From: a virus
Lineage: Duplodnaviria; Heunggongvirae; Uroviricota; Caudoviricetes
Length of the DNA: 35,093 bases
IMG/VR virus record: IMGVR_UViG_2529293015_000001
Reading direction: 5' to 3' (one strand)
In this document: piece by piece, positions 1 through 35,093 of the stretch
How positions within the stretch are numbered: position 1 is the stretch's first letter
Layout: each line of letters opens with the position of its first letter
Made by a program: the position numbers and the translations under genes
The notes under the pieces: generated by a model
What the model saw: only the letters and a program-made list of their open reading frames with translations
Databases searched by the model: none
What the model was told of the DNA's origin: nothing

Positions 1-75
1 CCACTTATCCAATAGTATTAAGACCTGAAAGACAGTAACGGTAAGGCATTAACCGGACTGGCTGATAACATTGAA

Positions 76-2163
76 ATGTCTGTGGAATTTACTGCGGATA
101 GCAATAGTGCTCGACAGCGTGAAACGGTAACTGCTCCGTCATTAGGCGCGGTAGAGGAAATCTCTGCTGGTGTATATCGCTCTGTTCTGGCTGCTGGTTC
201 GCAGGCTGGGACGGTACGTGTAACTGCAAAAGTTCAGGGAAAAACATTTACTCTCAGTATTAAGCAAACAGCAGCAACAGAACCTGATTCTGAGGTCAGT
301 GCTGCTTTAACCGCTGCACCAGCAGAACAGGTAGTTGGTTACAATATCAATCTACAACTGGCAGTGAAGGATTCACAAGGAAATGCAATCACTGGTGATA
401 ACACTCTGAGCTTTTATGCTCTTAACCAGGCAGAAGGAGTCGAGTTTGGGACTGTAACGGAAAAAGACGGTGTCTATAGCGCGACAGTAACTTCAAAACG
501 AGCTGGTAAGATTACTATCGGTGTTAAATCTGATAGTCATGATTTCTCAGGTGTTAAGAAAGAAATCACCTTTATTGAGGACCGGCAGCAGGTTACATTC
601 TCTCAGTTTGAAGCCAGCCAAAATAATGCATTGGCTGATGGAATACAGAGAAATATGGTAACTGTAAGCCTTGCGGACCGTTTCGGCAATGTTGTTCCTG
701 GTTATGCTGTTACGTTGTCCTTACCTGCGGGGGTAACTCAAGTTGGTGGTGAACATGCAGTGTCAACTGACGAAAACGGAAATGCTGTTTTTGCATTAAT
801 AAGCTCCACTCCAGGTTCTTACGTGATTAAAGCTCACGCTGGGCCTCAGGTATCTACTGAGTTAACTGTAACCTTTGCATCAAATATGAGCGGAGCTTCA
901 CTGTCACTGATGCCTGAAAACAGTAGCTTAATTTCGAATATTCCTGCTAATGGTAAAGATGCTGCGGTATTGAATGTTCAGCTAACAAATAATACTAATG
1001 CGTCGGTTAATGGACAGAAGGTTCAGCTCATCACCTCATCTGAAGGGTTGTCTGTGCCGACAAATATCGTGACTGATTCAACAGGACATGTTTCTGTACC
1101 AGTTACAACGGTTAGAGCTGGTGAGTACACGGTAACTGCACGGGTGACTGATGGTTCTAATAGTGTGGAATCTGGAAGCGTTAAGTTAACTTTTGTGCCA
1201 GATATTGCTTCCGCAGAACTCACTATGAGTGTATCAAAACAGCAGATTGTGGCCGATAGCAGTGAAAGTGCAACAGTAGACATTCAGTTGGTTGACGCCA
1301 ATAACAATACGTTTACCGGTGATGTAAATTTAACGATCACCCCATCGACGGGAGCATCATTGACCAGCAGTAAACTGCAGCTGGATGCTTATGGAAAGGC
1401 ATCAACGCAGTTCACTGCATCGAAATCGGGCCAGTACACAATTCAGGCCGAGCATGTTCAGGATGGGAAACGCATAACGGCGAGCCAAAATATTGATGCC
1501 GTGACGGATGTGAAGGAGGCTGTGTTGGAGATCGCATCATCTGTATCTTCTGCTGTTGTGAGCGATTCCAACAATCTTACATTTACGTTGCATCTGAAAA
1601 ATACGTCAGGCGAAGCATTAAGTGGTCGAGCACTGAATATTAAGACTTCTGGACCGTCCAAATATGGTGCTTTGGTGGTTGATAAAACCACAGTAACGAC
1701 TGATGAGCGCGGCCAGGCTACGGTAAGCGTACATGGTCGAACGGCTGGTTCGTATAAATTAACGGCGACCTTAAACGAACTTGGTAGTGATGTTAGCGCG
1801 GTGAAATCATTCTCCCTGTACGCTGATGAAGCAAATGGGGTTCTGAGTCTTGAAAAAGACTATGGTTATGAGGTTAATGACGGCTCTCCAACAGGTATTT
1901 ATGCTCGATTTGTCGATCATTTTGGAAACCCATTATCTGGTACGGTTGAGTTTTCTGCTGGTAGTGAAGATAGTCCAGACTCTCAACACGTCAAAATGGA
2001 ACCTGCTACAGTAACGTTAAGCTCGACAGGTTACGCTGCCTCTGAGTTCAGCACCTATGAAAGTGGTTATCACTGGATTAAGGCCAAAATAACGAATAGC
2101 AAAAATACATATGAGAAAACAATAAGGACTTATGTTGTAAAACTACCTGAAAAGGATAGTTAA
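76..2163 (+). CDS. Ig-like (Big_1-type) repeat adhesin of the invasin/intimin passenger kind; no signal peptide or beta-barrel visible, so probably a 3' fragment or frameshifted gene
   Basis: 695-aa ORF made of about seven tandem ~95-aa T/S/V/G-rich repeats typical of bacterial Ig-like domains; in-frame stops at 13-21 just upstream; no convincing SD before ATG 76; GC lower than phage core. Confidence 0.5.
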   Translation: MSVEFTADSNSARQRETVTAPSLGAVEEISAGVYRSVLAAGSQAGTVRVTAKVQGKTFTLSIKQTAATEPDSEVSAALTAAPAEQVVGYNINLQLAVKDSQGNAITGDNTLSFYALNQAEGVEFGTVTEKDGVYSATVTSKRAGKITIGVKSDSHDFSGVKKEITFIEDRQQVTFSQFEASQNNALADGIQRNMVTVSLADRFGNVVPGYAVTLSLPAGVTQVGGEHAVSTDENGNAVFALISSTPGSYVIKAHAGPQVSTELTVTFASNMSGASLSLMPENSSLISNIPANGKDAAVLNVQLTNNTNASVNGQKVQLITSSEGLSVPTNIVTDSTGHVSVPVTTVRAGEYTVTARVTDGSNSVESGSVKLTFVPDIASAELTMSVSKQQIVADSSESATVDIQLVDANNNTFTGDVNLTITPSTGASLTSSKLQLDAYGKASTQFTASKSGQYTIQAEHVQDGKRITASQNIDAVTDVKEAVLEIASSVSSAVVSDSNNLTFTLHLKNTSGEALSGRALNIKTSGPSKYGALVVDKTTVTTDERGQATVSVHGRTAGSYKLTATLNELGSDVSAVKSFSLYADEANGVLSLEKDYGYEVNDGSPTGIYARFVDHFGNPLSGTVEFSAGSEDSPDSQHVKMEPATVTLSSTGYAASEFSTYESGYHWIKAKITNSKNTYEKTIRTYVVKLPEKDS

Positions 2164-2175
2164 CAAAATTGAATG

Positions 2176-2201
2176 GGGAGGGCTTAGCCCTCCCTCTTTT
2201 T
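2176..2201. terminator. Bidirectional intrinsic terminator between convergent genes
   Basis: Perfect 8-bp GC-rich stem GGGAGGGC/GCCCTCCC (2176-2183, 2187-2194), loop TTA, then TCTTTTT; A/T run on the other side as well. Confidence 0.7.
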
Positions 2202-3243
2202 ACAGGTTAGCGTTTGGGTTTTGTTGTTGGGGAGCTGTTTTTATAGGCGCTCCCAGGTTTTTAGTAAACCACTCAACGACTCTGTTTATAATAATTGGCT
2301 GATACCATGTCTTATCGCCATGCTCGGCCCCTTCTACCAGAACGTACTCAGCGTTATCGCTGTTCTTCTTCAACATCCTGAATAGTTTGGCGCTTTGCTC
2401 CGGTGAAACCAGAGTGTCTTTGCTACCATGCATAATAAGAAATGGAGGTTTTACTCCTTTCATATGTCCGATTGGACTGGCGTTTAGCGCTTTTTCTTTT
2501 GACGCTGTGATGGGGGCTCCCGCAAAATTTCTGAATGCAGGGCCATTGATCATTAAGGCTTCGGTTACGGCAGGAGAGCGATGAACCTCCTGAACTGATT
2601 CAGGGAACCCCTCGCCAATATTCAACAAGTCAGAAATTCCATAAAGTGTGGCAACTGCCTGAACATCTGAGGATTGCTGAAGAAAGTCACCTTTATCAAA
2701 GGTTTTGTCACCATTTGTAGTTCCCATCATCTGGGCAAGCCATCCACCGGCAGAGTCACCCAGAACTCCGATTCTTTGAGGATCAATCCCATAATCGCTG
2801 GCATGCTCTCTCAGGTAACGTATTGCAGCTTTTCCATCCTCAACTGGTGCTGGAAATGTATCAGGAATTGTTCGGTATTCTACAGCGGCCACAACAAAAC
2901 CAGCTTCTGCCAGAGCCATTCTCATTTCAATAAATTTGTCATGTTCAGAAGACATGAATCCGCCGCCGGGATAATAAATAATGGCTGGTTTTAAATCATT
3001 TGTTCGCGGGACAAGAACTGACATGTGAAGCTGTCTGACAGAACGAGTTCCTTTTATCTGGGAGTAAACAACATCACCAATGAGATCGACCTGGTTTCTG
3101 GTCGGTGAAACACTAATGATATCTGCGCCCGGGGTGTAACCAGGAAGATTAGTCTGGACAGGTGTTGCACAACTCCCGACCGACATGGCCATTGACATAC
3201 CATACAATAGTGTTGCAGATGATAATATCTTGTTAATTTTCAT
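2200..3243 (-). CDS. Lipoprotein alpha/beta-hydrolase, hormone-sensitive-lipase-type esterase/lipase
   Basis: 347 aa; N-terminal signal with lipobox-like VGSC; HGG-like oxyanion motif YYPGGGF; nucleophile elbow GDSAG; later Asp and His consistent with a catalytic triad. Confidence 0.65.
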   Translation of the reverse strand: MKINKILSSATLLYGMSMAMSVGSCATPVQTNLPGYTPGADIISVSPTRNQVDLIGDVVYSQIKGTRSVRQLHMSVLVPRTNDLKPAIIYYPGGGFMSSEHDKFIEMRMALAEAGFVVAAVEYRTIPDTFPAPVEDGKAAIRYLREHASDYGIDPQRIGVLGDSAGGWLAQMMGTTNGDKTFDKGDFLQQSSDVQAVATLYGISDLLNIGEGFPESVQEVHRSPAVTEALMINGPAFRNFAGAPITASKEKALNASPIGHMKGVKPPFLIMHGSKDTLVSPEQSAKLFRMLKKNSDNAEYVLVEGAEHGDKTWYQPIIINRVVEWFTKNLGAPIKTAPQQQNPNANL

Positions 3244-3690
3244 GTTTTACATGCCTTGACTTATCGGATGAAATTCTCTTACTGAATTTAACGGCAGTTT
3301 AATAGCCGTACAACTCGTGGTAGCCAGGGAAATATCCCAGTCGTGGTTAAGGTTGTACTTGACGGCTATTATTTCAACAATGCTTAAAGTGAGAGCTTAA
3401 GGTTATGCGTATGTTTTACAGCCCGAGTAGATTCTGACCAATAGCTTCTTTGTATAATTCTGTCAGAAATAAATCTTGGCTTGCATGAAGTTTGAGACCT
3501 TATCTTGTTTGATTATGAATAATCAATTCGCCATAATTGTATCACCGGAGCCTGAACAACTCCGGTGACTTCTGCGCTAAACGGGGACGTTTATGCGCAC
3601 ATACAATCCAACCTATCTTCTCCCTTCACAGATGCAGAAATGCACCTGCGATATCTTGCATCCAGCGTTTGATCTCTGCGGAGGTGAAGC

Positions 3691-4146
3691 GTGAACTTCC
3701 CACAAGATGGCATCAAACTGCATCGCGGTAACTTCACCGCTATCGGTCGGCAGATCCAGCCTTATCTGGAGGACGGCAAATGCTTTCGCATGGTGCTTAA
3801 ACCATGGCGCGAGAGACGCAGTCTTTCCCAGAATGCACTCAGCCACATGTGGTACAGCGAAATCAGTGAATACCTCATCAGCAGGGGTAAAACGTTCGCC
3901 ACTCCAGCTTGGGTAAAAGATGCTCTCAAACACACTTATCTCGGTTATGAAACCAAAGAACTGGTTGATGTCGTAACCGGTGAAATCACCACCATTCAGT
4001 CATTACGTCATACCTCCGATCTCGATACCGGAGAGATGTATGTCTTCCTGTGTAAGGTTGAAGCCTGGGCGATGAATATTGGTTGCCACCTGACTATTCC
4101 GCAGAGCTGCGAGTTCCAGCTGCTGCGCGACAAGCAGGAGGCGTAA
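3691..4146 (+). CDS. ybcN: YbcN/NinB-like nin-region protein (DNA base-flipping protein family)
   Basis: 151 aa, GTG start with SD GGAGGTG 4-5 nt upstream; sequence recalled as close to E. coli DLP12 YbcN; first gene of a ybcN-ninE-ybcO-rusA block. Confidence 0.55.
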
Positions 4147-4316
4147 TGGCTACACCGCTTATTCGTGTCATGAACGGACACATCTACAGAGTACCAAATC
4201 GTCGTAAGCGTAAACCTGAGCTGAAGCCATCCGAAATACCAACACTGCTCGGATATACCGCCAGCCTGGTTGATAAAAAATGGTTGCGACTGGCAGCAAG
4301 GAGGAATCATGGCTGA
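4146..4316 (+). CDS. ninE: NinE-like small protein
   Basis: ATG overlaps ybcN stop (TAATG); 56 aa basic protein with KRKP...W.R signature recalled from lambda/DLP12 NinE; the six-frame ORF 4083-4316 is an upstream extension of it. Confidence 0.55.
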   Translation: MATPLIRVMNGHIYRVPNRRKRKPELKPSEIPTLLGYTASLVDKKWLRLAARRNHG

Positions 4317-4638
4317 TTTGAGAAAAGCAGCGTGTGGTCGGGAATGCCAGGTAAGAATCCCAGGCGTATGTAATGGCAATCCTGAAACGTCTGTACTGGC
4401 ACATATCCGGCTGGCTGGATTGTGCGATACCGGTATCAAACCGCCAGACCTGATTGCCACCATTGCATGTTCTGCCTGTCACGACGAAATCGACCGTCGC
4501 ACGCATTTTGTTGACGCTGGATATGCAAAAGAATGCGCGCTGGAAGGTATGGCGAGAACACTGGTTATCTGGCTGAAAGAGGGGTTATTAAGGCGTGAAT
4601 ACCTACAGCATCACATTACCCTGGCCTCCGAGCAATAA
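4309..4638 (+). CDS. ybcO: YbcO-like (DUF1364) putative nuclease, Cys-rich
   Basis: ATG 4309 preceded by AGGAGG; [23 protein letters not shown]... recalled as DLP12 YbcO; several conserved Cys. Confidence 0.6.
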
Positions 4639-4957
4639 TCGCTATTACCGCCATAATCGCGGGCGCACGCACGTCAGCGCAGAGGGGCAGGCATACCGCG
4701 ATAACGTCGCCCGAATTATTAAAAACGCAATGCTGGATATCGGCCTGGCTATTCCTGTGAAAATCCGCATTGAGTGCCACATGCCGGATCGCCGTCGCCG
4801 TGACCTAGATAATCTGCAAAAGGCCGCTTTTGACGCACTCACCAAAGCAGGTTTCTGGCTGGATGATGTTCAGGTCGTTGATTACCGCGTTGTGAAGATG
4901 CCCGTTACCAAAGGTGGGAAGCTGGAGCTGACCATCACCGAACTGGGGAATGAATGA
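4595..4957 (+). CDS. rusA: RusA Holliday-junction resolvase
   Basis: 120 aa; [18 protein letters not shown]... matches recalled RusA of prophage DLP12 almost residue for residue; GTG start overlapping ybcO 3' end. Confidence 0.85.
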
Positions 4958-5094
4958 TGTTTGAGTCTTATATAGCAGAACGTCTTCGCCACCGCTGGAT
5001 GCGCCTGCGCTTATATCGTTTCCCCGGTTCTGTTTTGACCGATTACCGGATACTGAAGAATTACGCCAAAACACTGAAAGGAGCTGCCGCATGA
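4954..5094 (+). CDS. ylcG: YlcG-like small protein (46 aa)
   Basis: ATG 4954 overlaps rusA stop; stop overlaps Q start (ATGA); [23 protein letters not shown]...; same position as ylcG between rusA and Q in DLP12; below the 60-aa ORF-track cutoff. Confidence 0.45.
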
Positions 5095-5798
5095 ATACCC
5101 AATATTTACAGTATGTCCGCGAGCAACTCATTGTGGCTACCGCTGATTTGAGCGGAGCAACGAAAGGCCAGCTTGAAGCCTGGCTGGAGCATGCACAATT
5201 TGATACTGGTACATATAAACGAAAGAAGCCGCGCATTCTGGATGAGGTAACGGGCAAGACGATTACGCTGGATAATCCGCCGATCCCGGGAAAACAATCG
5301 CTGGCGAAAGGCTCATCAATTGCCCTGGTCAGCCCGGTTGAGTTTTCGACATCATCATGGCGGCGGGCGGTTCTGTCTCTTGAAGAACATCATAAAGTCT
5401 GGTTGTTGTGGTGTTATGGCGGAAACATTTACTGGGAGCATCAGATCGCGATAACGCAGTGGGCATGGAACGAGTTTAAGGCTCTGTTAGGTACAAGAAA
5501 AATTGCCAGTAAAACACTGGAACGCTTAAAGAAGTTGATCTGGCTGGCTGCACAGGATGTGAAGAACGAACTGGCCGGGCGTAAGACCTATGAATACCAG
5601 GCGCTGGCGGCGCTGCTTGGTGTGGCTAAATCCACTTGGACGGGGACTTATCTTCCCTACTGGTTGATGATGTGGGATGTATATGTCCGTCTGGATAACG
5701 AAGCATTGTGTCATGCGTCCCTGACTCGTTCGCAACAGAGGTCGACAAACTACCATCAAAATATTGCAAAAACGAACCGGAATCGCTATATTTTATGA
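5091..5798 (+). CDS. Late-gene antiterminator Q-like protein
   Basis: 235 aa; SD AAAGGAG 8 nt upstream; sits after rusA/ylcG and before the lysis cassette, the canonical Q slot; resembles long Qin/phage-82-type Q rather than lambda Q or 127-aa DLP12 QuuD. Confidence 0.55.
   Translation: MNTQYLQYVREQLIVATADLSGATKGQLEAWLEHAQFDTGTYKRKKPRILDEVTGKTITLDNPPIPGKQSLAKGSSIALVSPVEFSTSSWRRAVLSLEEHHKVWLLWCYGGNIYWEHQIAITQWAWNEFKALLGTRKIASKTLERLKKLIWLAAQDVKNELAGRKTYEYQALAALLGVAKSTWTGTYLPYWLMMWDVYVRLDNEALCHASLTRSQQRSTNYHQNIAKTNRNRYIL
5764..5792 (+). promoter_or_regulatory. Candidate sigma70 late promoter (pR'-like), possibly with qut site
   Basis: TTGCAA (5764-5769), 17-bp spacer, TATATT (5787-5792), overlapping the last Q codons. 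Confidence 0.35.
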
Positions 5799-5847
5799 AA
5801 TCCTGATATTATGCGAATATTTTATTCGCTGGTAGTAAACCAGCTTT

Positions 5848-5878
5848 CCCCAAGGAGCTACTCCTTGGGGTTTTTATT
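5848..5878 (+). terminator. Strong intrinsic terminator, candidate tR' ending a ~75-nt leader RNA
   Basis: Perfect 10-bp stem CCCCAAGGAG/CTCCTTGGGG with loop CTA followed by TTTTTATTTATT. Confidence 0.6.
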
Positions 5879-6036
5879 TATTATTGCAACGACATTTATA
5901 ATACCGTTGCTTTATTGTAACGGTGTTCCCTGCTGTAGCCTTATTTTTTTGTGGGTTTTTTCTTGCTGAAGTTTGGCAAAGTGAACTTTGTATGCATATA
6001 CTTCATCCAAATATTCAGTAATATCAGGTGGATGAT

Positions 6037-6771
6037 ATGGCAATTACATGTTCAGTTATATTGGTTCTGGAGTCGTTTGATGTGCCTTTGGGAAAGAATA
6101 GAGTGTTTCTGGAAAAAGGCTCATCTGTACTTGTTGACTATGGAACCAGAGATTTTTTTCTGACATATCCGGAAAGAGTTATAGTAGCGGATTTTGGTGG
6201 TGAATTTATTAGCCGCTATTTGAAAGCTAATAATCTAAGGGGTTTTTCTGATTGTAGGGAATATCCATCTTATATAAAAACAAATTTTGCTGATTTCAGT
6301 CTAATTAAGGGGTTAATTAGTTGGGCTAATCACTGCACTGAATACATTGAAGTTTTAGATGAGTCTATTGCATTTACATGCCTATCCGCATTTGCGTCGG
6401 AAAAACAATTTACAATATTCCTGTTTGGATGTCTGAAAAGTGTAGGGGCTAAAGTTAAAGCGATTATTCATACGGATATGTCTGCACCCTGGCGTCTTAA
6501 AGATATATCTTCAAGATTATATCTCAGCGAAAGTTTGCTAAAGAGGAAATTGAGAGAAGAAGGTCTGTCATTCAGTAAAATTATACTTGATGAGAGGATG
6601 CGGATGGCTGAATATTTACTCAGCACTCGTTGCTATTCTATTCGCAAAGTAGCCGAGGTCTGTGGTTATGTAAGTGTCTCGTACTTTGTTCATGTATTTA
6701 GATGTTATTTTGGTATTTCTCCAAACCAGTATTCACAGAAGAACTCAGAAAGTGAGATTATCACTCACTAG
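6037..6771 (+). CDS. AraC-family transcriptional regulator of the AppY/YdeO/GadX-like subfamily; moron
   Basis: C-terminal twin helix-turn-helix typical of AraC/XylS (…IRKVAEVCGYVSVSYFVHVFRCYFGISPNQY); N-terminus M-x3-CSV parallels the appY-like ORF at 34362; AT-rich island; ATG 6037 with AGGTG upstream (GTG 6028 alternative). Confidence 0.75.
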   Translation: MAITCSVILVLESFDVPLGKNRVFLEKGSSVLVDYGTRDFFLTYPERVIVADFGGEFISRYLKANNLRGFSDCREYPSYIKTNFADFSLIKGLISWANHCTEYIEVLDESIAFTCLSAFASEKQFTIFLFGCLKSVGAKVKAIIHTDMSAPWRLKDISSRLYLSESLLKRKLREEGLSFSKIILDERMRMAEYLLSTRCYSIRKVAEVCGYVSVSYFVHVFRCYFGISPNQYSQKNSESEIITH

Positions 6772-6951
6772 AGCGGCTGTACGGTCTGCTGCTGATAGCT
6801 TTTACGGACCGTAGTAATACACCCAGAATGGACGCCAGCATTATTGCTGGTTTTTTGTAAAGTAAATCCGACAATTTCTTTAGCTATTTTATCTTCCTTT
6901 CTTTTTATCTTCGGTCTGATTATGCCATCCGTTCTGTACGGAGGTGAGGCT

Positions 6952-7167
6952 ATGAAATCCATGGACAAGTTAACAACGGGGGTCGCTTATGGCACATCTG
7001 CGGGTAATGCAGGTTTTTGGGCATTACAGCTACTTGATAAAGTGACCCCATCGCAGTGGGCTGCAATAGGTGTGCTGGGTAGTCTGATATTTGGTTTGCT
7101 GACGTACCTGACAAACCTGTATTTCAAGATAAAAGAGGACCGTCGCAAGGCGGCGCGGGGAGAGTAA
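6952..7167 (+). CDS. essD: Phage-21-type pinholin (S21/EssD family), dual-start
   Basis: 71 aa; [26 protein letters not shown]...[14 protein letters not shown] close to recalled S21; MKSM dual start typical of antiholin/holin pair; SD GGAGGTG; the 6844 ORF-track start is an upstream extension. Confidence 0.8.
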
Positions 7168-7859: not shown

Positions 7860-8393
7860 ATGAACGCAAAAATCAAATACGGCCTGTCAGCGGCCGTTCT
7901 GGCGCTGATTGGAGCAGGCGCATCTGCTCCTGAGATACTTGACCAGTTTCTGGATGAAAAAGAGGGTAACCACACTACGGCATACCGCGATGGTTCCGGC
8001 ATATGGACCATCTGCCGCGGTGCCACGATAGTAGATGGTAAACCTGTTATTCCGGGCATGACACTGACGAAGGAAAAATGCGTTCAGGTTAATGCCATTG
8101 AGCGTGATAAGGCGCTGGCATGGGTGGATCGCAATATTAAAGTAACACTGACCGAACCACAAAAAGCGGGTATCGCGTCATTTTGTCCCTATAACATTGG
8201 CCCCGGTAAGTGTTTTCCGTCGACGTTTTATAAGCGGCTGAATGCCGGTGATCGTAAGGGTGCATGCGAGGCGATTCGCTGGTGGATAAAAGATGGTGGG
8301 CGCGATTGCCGCATACGTTCAAATAACTGCTATGGACAGGTTATTCGCCGTGACCAGGAAAGCGCATTAGCCTGTTGGGGGATAGATCAGTGA
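7860..8393 (+). CDS. rrrD: SAR endolysin, lysozyme (GH24-like) with N-terminal signal-arrest-release domain
   Basis: 177 aa; [45 protein letters not shown]... recalled as near-identical to DLP12 RrrD; hydrophobic Gly/Ala-rich N-terminus fits a SAR domain and the pinholin partner. Confidence 0.85.
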
Positions 8394-8851
8394 GCAGAGT
8401 CGCCGCGATTATTTATGCTCTGGTTATCTGCATCATCGTCTGCCTGTCATGGGCTGTTAATCATTACCGTGATAACGCCATTACCTACAAAGCCCAGCGC
8501 GACAAAAATGCCAAAGAACTGAAGCTGGCGAACGCGGCAATTACTGACATGCAGATGCGTCAGCGTGATGTTGCTGCGCTCGATGCAAAATACACGAAGG
8601 AGTTAGCTGATGCGAAAGCTGAAAATGATGCTCTGCGTGATGATGTTGCCGCTGGTCGTCGTCGGTTGCACATCAAAGCAGTCTGTCAGTCAGTGCGTGA
8701 AGCCACCACCGCCTCCGGCGTGGATAATGCAGCCTCCCCCCGACTGGCAGACACCGCTGAACAGGATTATTTCACCCTCAGAGAGAGGCTGATCACTATG
8801 CAAAAACAACTGGAAGGAACCCAGAAGTATATTAATGAGCAGTGCAGATAG
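8390..8851 (+). CDS. rzpD: Rz i-spanin
   Basis: GTG 8390 overlaps endolysin stop (GTGA); N-terminal TM helix then coiled-coil-like region; matches recalled DLP12 RzpD; ORF track extends to TTG 8375. Confidence 0.8.
8610..8792 (+). CDS. rzoD: Rz1 o-spanin lipoprotein, embedded in +1 frame inside Rz
   Basis: 60 aa; SD AAGGAG 8 nt upstream; signal peptide with lipobox VVGC; Pro-rich mature part (PPPPPAW...PPPDW). Confidence 0.75.
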
Positions 8852-8882
8852 AGCTGCCCATATCGATGGGCAACTCATGCAA

Positions 8883-9176
8883 TTATTGTGAGCAATACAC
8901 ACGCGCTTCCAGCGGAGTATAAATGCCTAAAGTAATAAAACCGAGCAATCCATTTACGAATGTTTGCTGGGTTTCTGTTTTAACAACATTTTCTGCGCCG
9001 CCACAAATTTTGGCTGCATCAACAGTTTTCTCCTGTCCAATTCCCGAAACGAAGAAGTGATGGGTGATGGTTTCCTTTGGTGTTACTGCTGTCGGTTTGT
9101 TTCCAACAGTAAACGTCTGTTGAGCACATCCTGTAATAAGCATTGCCAGAGCGGCAGAAAACAACATTTTTTTCAT
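8883..9176 (-). CDS. bor: Bor lipoprotein (serum-resistance, Iss family)
   Basis: 97 aa from MKKMLFSAALAMLITGCAQQ (lipobox ITGC); same place and orientation as lambda bor; ORF-track start 9224 is an upstream extension. Confidence 0.85.
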   Translation of the reverse strand: MKKMLFSAALAMLITGCAQQTFTVGNKPTAVTPKETITHHFFVSGIGQEKTVDAAKICGGAENVVKTETQQTFVNGLLGFITLGIYTPLEARVYCSQ

Positions 9177-9535
9177 CTTATTATCCTGCATTGTTAAAAA
9201 CGGCAGAATCCTATGTGACAACAATTAAACGATAGTTAAATGGATTGATGAAAATTAAAACTATATAGGTGGATGCTCAGCCTATTGGAGGAGGGGGGCA
9301 CTCAGAATCCTGTGGAATGAAATAAACCGCTCTTTCTGTCCATTACCCTTTTAGCTGCGCTGTATCGTCGCCGTATTCCCGCATTAACCATGACCGTAGC
9401 CCGACGGGGAATTCCTTCTGCGTGAGTGTGCGGGAATAATCAAAAACGATGCACACCGGGTTTTACTGTGCTGACAGACGCAGGGTTACCCTCATAGTCG
9501 CTTTTCCGGTGCGATGGTGGAAGAAACCGGGATGT

Positions 9536-9730
9536 TTATTCATCATCACTTTGGATTGATGTATATGCTCTCTTTTCTGACGTTAGTCTCCGACGGCAGG
9601 CTTCAATGACCCAGGCTGAGAAATTCCCAGACCCTTTTTGCTCAAGAGCGATGTTAATTTGTTCAATCATTTGGTTAGGAAAGCGGATGTTGCGGGTTGT
9701 TGTTCTGCGGGTTCTGTTCTTAGTTGACAT
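9536..9730 (-). CDS. ylcI: Small basic protein (DUF3950/YlcI-like)
   Basis: 64-aa ORF MSTKNRTRRTTTRNIRFPNQMIEQINIALEQKG... recalled as DLP12 YlcI; weak RBS, so expression uncertain. Confidence 0.45.
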   Translation of the reverse strand: MSTKNRTRRTTTRNIRFPNQMIEQINIALEQKGSGNFSAWVIEACRRRLTSEKRAYTSIQSDDE

Positions 9731-28968: not shown

Positions 28969-29568
28969 ATGCGTAAATTATGTGCTGTTATTCTGTCCGC
29001 AGTAGTCTGGCTGGTTGCCGCTGGTACGCCAGCGAGCGCAGCAGAGCATCAGTCCACACTAAGCGCCGGGTATCTTCAGACCCATACTGATATGCCAGGC
29101 AGCGATGACCTGAAGGGCATTAATGTGAAATACCGTTATGAATTTACGGACACGCTGGGGCTGGTGACGTCATTCAGTTATGCCAATGCCAAAGATGAGC
29201 AAAAAACGCATTACAGCGATACCCGCTGGCATGAAGATTCAGTGCGTAACCGCTGGTTCAGCATGATGGCGGGGCCATCTGTACGCGTGAATGAATGGTT
29301 CAGTGCTTATGCGATGGCAGGTGTGGCTTACAGCCGTGTTTCGACGTTCTCCGGGGATTATCTCCGCGTAACTGACAGCAAGGGGAAAACGCACGATGTG
29401 CTGACCGGAAGTGATGACGATCGCCACAGCAACACGTCTCTGGCGTGGGGAGCTGGCGTGCAGTTTAACCCGACCGAATCCGTGGCCATTGATATTGCTT
29501 ATGAAGGCTCCGGCAGTGGCGACTGGCGCACTGACGGTTTCATCGTGGGTGTCGGTTATAAGTTCTGA
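28969..29568 (+). CDS. lom: Lom outer-membrane protein (Ail/Lom/PagC family)
   Basis: 199 aa; signal peptide ...AAGTPASAAEH; beta-barrel-like alternating pattern; C-terminal ...GVGYKF; SD GAGAGG. Confidence 0.8.
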   Translation: MRKLCAVILSAVVWLVAAGTPASAAEHQSTLSAGYLQTHTDMPGSDDLKGINVKYRYEFTDTLGLVTSFSYANAKDEQKTHYSDTRWHEDSVRNRWFSMMAGPSVRVNEWFSAYAMAGVAYSRVSTFSGDYLRVTDSKGKTHDVLTGSDDDRHSNTSLAWGAGVQFNPTESVAIDIAYEGSGSGDWRTDGFIVGVGYKF

Positions 29569-34361: not shown

Positions 34362-34739
34362 ATGGATTATGTTTGCTCCGTAGTTTTCATCTGTCAATCA
34401 TTTGATTTAATTATAAACAGGAGAGTTATCTCGTTCAAAAAAAATTCATTGTTTATTGTAAGCGACAAAATTAGAAGAGAGTTACCAGTATGCCCCTCTA
34501 AACTAAGAATTGTTGATATAGATAAGAAAACATGTTTATCCTTTTTTATCGACGTGAATAATGAGTTGCCTGGCAAATTTACTCTTGATAAGAATGGCTA
34601 TATTGCTGAAGAGGAACCTCCATTATCGCTTGTTTTTTCTCTGTTTGAAGGGATTAAAATAGCAGACTCACACTCCCTTTGGTTAAAAGAAAGACTATGT
34701 ACTGATGAATCCCCTAATGATTTTGGTAAAAATCATTAA
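34362..34739 (+). pseudogene. appY: appY-like AraC-family regulator truncated after about codon 113 by IS10; the last 12 codons are read from the IS10 end
   Basis: [30 protein letters not shown]... recalled as the AppY N-terminus (DLP12); homology ends where the IS10 outside end begins (34702); the AraC helix-turn-helix part is missing. Confidence 0.6.
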
Positions 34740-34747
34740 GTTAAGGT

Positions 34748-34816
34748 GGATACACATCTTGTCATATGATCAAATGGTTTCGCGAAAAATCAATAATCAG
34801 ACAACAAGATGTGCGA
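34748..34816 (-). ncRNA. IS10 RNA-OUT antisense RNA (position estimated by offset from the IS10 end)
   Basis: Known IS10 organisation: ~69-nt RNA-OUT from pOUT, complementary to the 5' end of the transposase mRNA; coordinates are the IS10 positions about 47-115 mapped onto the window, not an independent prediction. Confidence 0.4.
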
Positions 34817-35093
34817 ACTCGATATTTTACACGACTCTCTTTACCAATTCTGCCCCGAATTACACTTAAAACGACTCAACAGCTTAACGTTGGCTTGCCA
34901 CGCATTACTTGACTGTAAAACTCTCACTCTTACCGAACTTGGCCGTAACCTGCCAACCAAAGCGAGAACAAAACATAACATCAAACGAATCGACCGGTTG
35001 TTAGGTAATCGTCACCTCCACAAAGAGCGACTCGCTGTATACCGTTGGCATGCTAGCTTTATCTGTTCGGGCAATACGATGCCCATTGTACTT
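34809..35093 (+). CDS. IS10 transposase, N-terminal 95 codons (partial)
   Basis: MCELDILHDSLYQFCPELHLKRLNSLTLACHALLDCKTLTLTELGRNLPTKARTKHNIKRIDRLLGNRHLHKERLAVYRWHASF... matches recalled IS10 transposase; no stop inside the window. Confidence 0.85.
   Translation, partial: MCELDILHDSLYQFCPELHLKRLNSLTLACHALLDCKTLTLTELGRNLPTKARTKHNIKRIDRLLGNRHLHKERLAVYRWHASFICSGNTMPIVL

Follow-up and report, generated by a model that had tools for sequence, protein, structure and literature searches.

We conclude that the first 2163 positions of a 35,093-bp stretch of Escherichia coli prophage DNA (contig CADHNQ010000008.1 of draft assembly GCA_902849155.1; hereafter, the window) are very probably the 3' part of a complete-type inverse autotransporter (IAT; type Ve secretion) adhesin gene carried as cargo by a lambdoid prophage, and that the convergent gene beside it, for an esterase of the BD-FAE family, is probably an independent moron. 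The prophage occupies the E. coli DLP12 (argU-ompT) locus, and the two genes lie in a cargo slot between replication gene P and the nin region. A first-pass annotation, made from the letters of the window alone, had described the left end as a 695-amino-acid (aa) open reading frame (ORF) made only of immunoglobulin (Ig)-like repeats, with no secretion signal or barrel and with stop codons immediately upstream. It had offered two explanations: a decayed, translocator-less locus captured by the prophage, or a hydrolase moron with a pseudogene neighbor. The translocator-less appearance is an assembly artifact or, at most, a private lesion of one base. That an IAT passenger is carried as prophage cargo next to a secreted esterase, as the annotation supposed, holds.

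The adhesin gene and the contig break

The window is identical, with 0 mismatches, to part of scaffold JH590646.1 (GCA_000242015.1), in which a gap of 291 Ns precedes window position 1 and a gap of 146 Ns follows position 35,093. Because both window ends coincide exactly with these gaps, we treat the two accessions as one contig set and position 1 as an assembly break. On the far side of the 291-N gap, the scaffold carries the phage O and P genes, followed by a 516-aa ORF that runs into the Ns and encodes a long apparent signal peptide, an IAT beta-barrel (PF11924), and the first Ig units; this PF11924-bearing part of the gene lies at 8085-9634 of locus L002. The absence of a signal and a barrel is thus true of the ORF in the window (no IAT_beta match in Pfam, and an N-terminus, MSVEFTADSNSARQ, without a hydrophobic signal) but not of the gene, in which both are found upstream of the scaffold gap.

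Ig-like passenger domains are encoded throughout the adhesin part of the window (Table 1), and frame 3 reads as adhesin sequence (...TYPIVL) from the first base. An extra A then shifts the reading frame, such that frame 3 runs into a stop codon and the adhesin continues in frame 1, where the first ATG opens the 695-aa ORF. The stops to which the annotation drew attention do exist in the frame of that ORF (13-15 and 19-21), but they, like the ORF itself, result from a single extra base 23 nucleotides (nt) from the contig end. The start of the 695-aa ORF is not a gene start, and frame 3 upstream of it belongs to the same gene. The content of the ORF was correctly described: a domain search with Pfam returns only Ig-like repeats, Big_1 at 4.8e-57 in five stretches and Invasin_D3 at 1.1e-42 in six. 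The exact 695-aa protein was found only in the CADHNQ assembly and its scaffolded twin.

Table 1. Features at the left end of the window (positions counted from its first letter).
Feature	Coordinates	Strand	Basis or remark
Adhesin gene, 3' 55% (codons ~585-1303 of the 1303-codon intact form), stop codon 2161-2163	1..2163	+	L007 alignment, RefSeq, Pfam
Second copy (part) of the 357-bp tandem repeat (119 aa), containing the contig break	1..266	+	Tandem Repeats Finder (TRF) on L007
Extra A (AAGACCTG in place of AAGCCTG), shifting the reading frame	23..23	+	Private to one assembly
TAA stop reached by frame 3 past the extra A (...TYPIVLRPERQ*)	36..38	+	Three-frame translation
695-aa remnant ORF	76..2163	+	First ATG in the shifted frame
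GC-rich hairpin terminator, 9-bp stem with 7 GC pairs	2175..2195	.	In the 36-nt gap between the two stop codons
Esterase, 347 aa, BD-FAE/family-IV-like alpha/beta hydrolase	2200..3243	-	Pfam, PDB, PHROGs, orthologues, AlphaFold2 (AF2)/Foldseek
AT-rich esterase upstream region, travels with the esterase	3244..3507	-	Shared phage homology

The gene is whole in other genomes. The complete genome NZ_AP022087 carries the homologue (96% identity) as a single ORF of 1303 codons, which RefSeq names "inverse autotransporter beta domain-containing protein" and which sits in an argU-integrated lambdoid prophage with the gene order P, adhesin, alpha/beta hydrolase, ybcN, ninE, ybcO, rusA, ylcG, and Q. A look-up of the exact esterase protein gave 10 loci, and window positions 1-3700 match six independent ones among them at 99.6-99.97%, all with an intact adhesin gene. 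Four of the six are from isolates (L007, L008, L011, and L014) and two are metagenome scaffolds (L009 and L010); the intact form is 1303 aa long in L007, L009, L010, and L011 and 1184 aa long in L008 and L014. The closest, L007, differs from the window over this span by no mismatch and by one gap, the A at position 23 (99.97%).

The contig break falls within a repeat of the 3.9-kb gene. In L007, TRF reports a period of 357 with 2.0 copies and 97% matches (repeat region 8978-9685 of that locus), and window positions 1-272 also match repeat copy 1 at 97.4%. Other assemblies fail at the same place: the draft contigs L015 and L016 end in this repeat, at the equivalents of window positions 135 and 216, yielding "proteins" of 675 and 648 aa, respectively, and L012 is scrambled there. 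The draft assembly analyzed here likewise broke within the 357-bp repeat, which places the translocator half of the gene on the preceding contig, and the extra A creates the apparent stops and the 695-aa ORF.

The extra A is absent from L001, from L007 to L011, from L014, and from repeat copy 1 of the same scaffold. The unshifted 32-mer spanning the site occurs in 19 JGI metagenome contigs, five of which hold two copies 357 bp apart; the 33-mer with the extra A occurs in 0 JGI metagenome contigs, and neither was found among GTDB species representatives. Since the 33-mer was never seen elsewhere, the base is private to one assembly. Given that the contig edge lies inside the repeat, we consider it somewhat more likely that the extra A is a contig-end assembly error than that it is a private frameshift. 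The chief alternative is that the frameshift is real and confined to this strain, so that the adhesin gene is a recent pseudogene; this reading, which is possible although not the one we favor, predicts a stub of ~595 aa (the barrel and two Ig domains, ending in ...TYPIVLRPERQ*) and a 695-aa remnant that is untranslated or cytoplasmic. The base does stand in the deposited sequence of both accessions, but as these are the same contig set they provide no independent confirmation. The insertion is not a homopolymer-type change, which tells against an assembly error, and the adhesin gene decays in other lineages by IS3 insertion; set against this, the base lies near a contig end within a 97%-identical repeat, was seen in no other sequence, and is accompanied by no other difference from L007 over 3700 nt. 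The suggestion of a hydrolase moron with a pseudogene neighbor would survive only in the narrow sense of such a private frameshift. Slipped-strand phase variation at position 23 was also considered and rejected, as there is no homopolymer or short repeat at the site and the change appears in one assembly only.

Two further explanations would make the lack of a translocator genuine. It is very improbable that an IAT locus had lost its 5' part at or before the point when the prophage acquired it, so that a pseudogene of Ig repeats alone remained. The window by itself, with no signal peptide or barrel and with stops upstream, does have this look; however, leftward extension recovered the IAT_beta barrel, together with an apparent signal peptide before it and the first Ig repeat after it, directly upstream in the same scaffold, the translocator is contiguous with the passenger in all of the near-identical loci, and window position 1 is a contig end rather than a gene boundary. 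We give even less credence to the idea that the 695-aa ORF encodes a genuine, independent Ig-repeat protein that lacks a barrel and is exported with the aid of a partner IAT, as happens for SinI or ZirS/ZirU with SinH or ZirT. Barrel-less IAT partners do exist, according to Goh et al. (2019), and a 648-aa PHROGs family, phrog_16344, is equal to the C-terminal part of the adhesin. Yet the ORF has no signal peptide, its exact form is confined to this assembly, its frame is continuous with the barrel in intact loci, and the 648-aa and 675-aa versions are the contig-end fragments of L016 and L015.

The near-identical 357-bp repeat thus breaks short-read assemblies and gives rise to false "truncated Ig-repeat proteins," which may even have been gathered as phrog_16344; such fragments should not be taken for pseudogenes or barrel-less adhesins. 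The length of phrog_16344 is that of the contig-end ORF of L016 (7081-9027), and the family may have been seeded by genes split or broken during assembly. The full-length adhesin is catalogued separately, as phrog_7803. A parallel exists in YrIlm: tandem Ig repeats that are nearly identical are known to lead to misassembled genes (Goh et al. 2019, discussion).

Architecture and variation of the intact adhesin

Intact genes match PF11924 at 8.3e-101. The barrel, a region that includes the linker RYDxVxRNNNIVLEY, matches invasin (4e1t) at 3.9e-75 and 256 bits and intimin (4e1s) at 3.7e-64 and 220 bits. Residues 342-442 match an intimin fragment (6tqd, 1.1e-09) and are followed by FdeC-like Big_1 domains, the passenger matching FdeC fragment 4e9l at 3.9e-16. 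The N-terminus MTTVNKKLKKTASGAITWSVIVTQILSPVSLSLIPANSFA/SS in L002 and L007 resembles a Sec signal peptide, as judged by inspection only. The 1303-aa form is predicted to have every component of a type Ve autotransporter: a Sec signal peptide of considerable length, an intimin/invasin-type beta-barrel of 12 strands (residues ~58-334), and some ten Ig-like domains, a figure estimated from length (Pfam detects seven). The BAM complex would insert the barrel, and the passenger would be exported as a hairpin with its C-terminus outward.

The last 118-122 aa, at the tip, look like a divergent Ig domain. This tip has no significant match in the PDB, and in a scan of 1.84 billion representative proteins it matched only its own prophage family, fragments of that family, and, weakly, Big repeats; the best match, P0256, is a 1064-aa deletion variant in the same prophage context. 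LysM, Intimin_C, and lectin domains have no Pfam match at E≤0.001 in the full-length protein. Upstream of the adhesin gene is an AT-rich leader of 250 bp with promoter-like hexamers.

By profile score, the adhesin is an IAT outside every named subtype, as it misses all NCBIfam equivalog cut-offs widely. The best score is for the IatC N-terminal model (392 against a cut-off of 2400), followed by intimin (329/1400), SinH (321/999), Ilp (315/1125), YrIlm (305/750), Inv (282/710), and YchO (272/508). The barrel is common to the prophage adhesin and to IatC, SinH/IatB, Ilp, YrIlm, Inv, and YchO. The order of signal peptide, PF11924 barrel, linker, and tandem Big_1/Invasin_D3 domains is that of invasin from Yersinia pseudotuberculosis and of intimin from enteropathogenic and enterohemorrhagic E. 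coli. Unlike these two, the prophage protein has no LysM and no detected C-type lectin-like tip, and it is carried on a lambdoid prophage, whereas intimin and invasin are encoded on the locus of enterocyte effacement or the chromosome. Goh et al. (2019) attribute C-type lectin caps only to YeeJ, IatC, and IatD. FdeC (EaeH) is also LysM-less and has a long Big_1 passenger of similar size; the same paper describes it as an IAT without LysM, encoded by a conserved chromosomal gene and 1415 aa long. The prophage adhesin differs from FdeC in being accessory, in its location between P and nin, in its 119-aa variable-number tandem repeat, and in a tip with no relatives outside its own family. The E. 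coli IAT survey of Goh et al. (2019) recognizes seven groups; in its available text, none is placed at a prophage, and the paper nowhere uses the word "prophage."

The length of the adhesin varies by whole repeat units. In a collection of 5.8 billion proteins, lengths step by 119 aa through 1184, 1302-1303 (by far the most contigs), 1421, and 1540, corresponding to one to four copies of the 119-aa Ig unit across variants, and copy number would be expected to alter the length of the stalk. The 5' part of the adhesin gene is present in 560 of 5426 complete E. coli genomes (~10%), in every case seen lying between phage P and the nin genes; the esterase is present in 681 of them (~12.6%), and 411 hold at least 80% of window positions 1-3700 in one place. 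Genomes with the module include O25b:H4-ST131. The adhesin/esterase pair is a common accessory module in a hot spot for cargo exchange of DLP12-type lambdoid prophages. Both proteins are already annotated in RefSeq and catalogued in PHROGs, and they appear to be unstudied: literature searches, both thematic and with the protein accessions, turned up no publication about the prophage adhesin or the esterase.

FdeC, YeeJ, and IatB to IatD serve as models for the role of the prophage adhesin: we expect it to form a rod on the cell surface that would promote adhesion or biofilm formation. In a table of PMC7312957, FdeC is reported to mediate adhesion, autoaggregation, and biofilm formation. The prophage adhesin would probably be silenced under laboratory conditions, as Goh et al. 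(2019) found for other IATs. Its expression, should it occur, would bring the IAT types among E. coli adhesins to eight and open a phage route of spread; such a gain would be modest and incremental, without amounting to a new kind of system.

The esterase and the module junction

The claim of a convergent alpha/beta hydrolase of the GDSAG type was borne out by profile search, in which BD-FAE (PF20434) is matched at 7.7e-45 and 153.5 bits (cut-off 26.8) and Abhydrolase_3 at 9.4e-22 and 78.2 bits (cut-off 25). The protein carries an oxyanion motif, PGGGF, at residues 92-96, a nucleophile elbow at G162-D163-S164-A165-G166 (GDSAGG), and a triad of Ser164, Asp276, and His308. These catalytic motifs are invariant in 17 sequences down to 63% identity, with the exception of A165 (≥90% conserved). 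Among solved structures, it is closest to Lip_vut4, a lipase/esterase from a rumen metagenome (6nkf, 2e-36), a Bacteroides GH43-CE bifunctional enzyme (6mly), and the gut carbohydrate/acetyl-xylan esterases 6xyc and 6tkx. The same four entries head the Foldseek list for the AF2 model (mean pLDDT 74.1, pTM 0.76), with 6nkf first (1.7e-20), then 6xyc, 6mly, and 6tkx, all at probability 1.00, consistent with an alpha/beta-hydrolase fold. In PHROGs, the protein belongs to phrog_3341, "esterase" (5e-129). The exact protein occurs in E. coli records (e.g., EHN91284.1), and its 90% cluster has 1454 members.

That the esterase is secreted is a solid prediction; that it is a lipoprotein, as the first-pass annotation had it, is plausible. 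The N-terminus starts with MKINK and ends in a lipobox-like signal, MKINKILSSATLLYGMSMAMSVGS-C25 (...AMSVGS-C25), with predicted cleavage before Cys25, as judged by a PROSITE PS51257-like rule (pattern [LVI][ASTVI][GAS]-C in the first ~35 residues, preceded by a positively charged n-region and a hydrophobic h-region). Four other E. coli/phage alleles (L001 and L004 to L006) share the VGS-C25 motif with its Cys25; however, the Cys is lacking in most orthologues, whose signals are of the usual signal-peptidase I type, and Tyr25 takes its place in the representative of the 90% cluster from E. coli. The S-C-A/T context at Cys25 is also compatible with a signal-peptidase I site. Under the +2 rule, Ala at +2 leads one to expect outer-membrane sorting for a lipoprotein. 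The product would be a Sec-exported, probably lipid-anchored serine carboxyl-esterase, and its likely activity, judged from family resemblance, would be the removal of feruloyl or acetyl groups from carbohydrate esters.

Orthologues of 63-80% identity are chromosomal and are found in Pectobacterium, Dickeya, Pantoea, Kosakonia, Klebsiella, Kluyvera, and Rhizobium, and for the one from D. aquatica the source gives the name "Ferulate esterase." The prophage esterase shares 63-69% identity with Dickeya orthologues that carry a signal peptide; from this name and signal peptide, the Dickeya orthologue presumably corresponds to FaeD, the Dickeya feruloyl esterase (CE10) that is secreted via the Out type II system. 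The prophage setting differs in that E. coli lacks the Out-secreted pectinase set and in that a lipobox-like Cys25 motif replaces the signal-peptidase I site. The bifunctional feruloyl/acetyl-xylan esterases of the BD-FAE family (PF20434) share the fold and the GDSAG Ser-Asp-His triad; unlike its solved BD-FAE relatives (23-33% identity), the prophage enzyme has no polysaccharide-utilization locus or fused glycosidase and has a lipobox-like signal. Prophage NanS-p esterases of Shiga toxin-producing E. coli have an SGNH fold and lie in the late region, whereas the esterase described here has an alpha/beta-hydrolase fold and lies in the cargo slot between P and nin.

Between the two convergent genes is a hairpin that folds on both strands (-18.1 kcal/mol on the plus strand and -16.7 on the minus strand; z -2.8 and -3.3). 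The proposed bidirectional terminator stands in part: the plus-strand hairpin is followed by a good U-tract, CTTTTTA (CUUUUUA), but the minus-strand tail (CAUUCAAUUUUGUU) is weak. It looks like a strong terminator for the adhesin gene and a weaker one for the esterase, and the hairpin is part of the adhesin module. Window positions 2196-3696 are matched at 97.9% in eight phage records, representing seven named lambdoid phages (4A7, Lambda_4C10, D2, 1W, 3W, PhiR47_2, and Perceval), all of which carry the esterase without the adhesin gene. In 4A7, the place of the adhesin is taken by ren, an emrE-like gene, and a ybcK-like recombinase gene, a DLP12-type arrangement that agrees with the annotation's statement that the pair is not lambda or K-12 DLP12 content. 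A different hairpin is found at the same junction in 4A7, and homology resumes at ~2193-2196, at a shared T-tract. On the other side, homology to phage records without the esterase (phage 82 and others) begins only at 3508-3530, at orf33. Given the separate distribution and the distinct hairpins, we regard the adhesin (plus its hairpin) and the esterase (plus the 260 bp upstream of it) as two separate cargo modules in one exchange hot spot.

Functional coupling of the adhesin and the esterase was considered and found no support: the genes are convergent, a module boundary separates them at 2193-2196, and some viable phages carry the esterase alone. The low GC content that had been noted holds: it is 44-45% across the pair, whereas the nin genes reach 50% and the late region 53%; that of positions 3244-3690 is 41.8%. 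The modules are like the lambda morons Lom and Bor and the prophage NanS-p esterases, which are likewise accessory and surface-located or secreted, lie between conserved modules, have their own terminator, vary in presence, and have a lower GC content.

The esterase gene is antisense to the early operon and would be expressed in the lysogen from a promoter of its own. A scan with the sigma-70 consensus gave no more promoter-like sites than in shuffled sequence. Within the region upstream of the esterase is a perfect 10-nt inverted repeat at 3300-3309 and 3362-3371 (TAATAGCCGT and ACGGCTATTA, 52 nt apart), and the region 3300-3371 has no Rfam match. A 33-aa ORF at 3593-3694, which overlaps the start of ybcN, is orf33 of phage 82 (X92588), a record that also annotates a regulator-binding site and a promoter at orf33.

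A fuller functional reading can be put together from these observations, although as a whole we consider it rather unlikely. In this scenario, the adhesin would be a functional, phage-transmitted protein outside the seven E. coli IAT groups, with a length-variable stalk (one to four units) and a unique tip, and would give lysogens (some ~10% of E. coli, ST131 among them) a new specificity for binding hosts or surfaces. It would be accompanied by a plant-type feruloyl/acetyl esterase, its constant neighbor, which would have come from plant-associated enterobacteria, become a lipoprotein, and helped the host to exploit dietary-fiber or mucin esters in the gut. Several points also weigh against one or another part of our main reading of the two genes. 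The literature yielded no expression or surface-display data for the adhesin, and an IS3-family element splits its gene in some lineages (L006 5351-6564; also L005 1-1160), from which we conclude that the adhesin gene is dispensable. On the esterase side, the AF2 model has low-confidence loops, the Gly at -2 is unusual for a lipobox and orthologues do not conserve the motif, the substrate is suggested by family resemblance at an identity of no more than 33% to any solved structure, and the sigma-70 consensus has no minus-strand match for the gene. In the IS3-split lineages, replication gene O is frameshifted beside another IS3 remnant, indicating a defective prophage, and the esterase is still intact.

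Other features of the prophage

Beyond the 146-N gap, the scaffold carries ompT and then an AraC-family gene, and because these adjoin the right gap we place the prophage at the DLP12 (argU-ompT) locus. Homologues of Bor (8883-9176, minus strand) and Lom (28969-29568, plus strand) are encoded in the window, so that, counting the adhesin and the esterase as well, the cargo of this prophage comprises at least four proteins that are secreted or located in the envelope. A gene for a further AraC-family regulator (244 aa, 6037-6771) lies in an island of 37% GC (5799-6951) between the antiterminator Q gene (5091-5798) and the holin gene (6952-7167). The Q-holin island is where Shiga toxin (Stx) phages carry stx, and the regulator would be a further moron of the same prophage.

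A scan of the window for tRNA genes found none, and an Rfam scan of window positions 1-6000 at E≤1 gave only sub-threshold noise. The YbcO-family ORF at 4309-4638 is 109 aa long in the window and in L007, overlapping the start of rusA (4595), and 96 aa long in several near-identical loci; the difference may reflect a mosaic junction or an alternative end. At the right contig end, positions 34701-35093 enter an insertion sequence that we take to be IS10-like from the inverted repeat at its terminus (CTGATGAATCCCCTAATGATTTTGG) and from an ORF for a transposase that begins at 34809 (MCELDILHDSLYQF...), and this element appears to interrupt a 125-aa ORF at 34362-34739.

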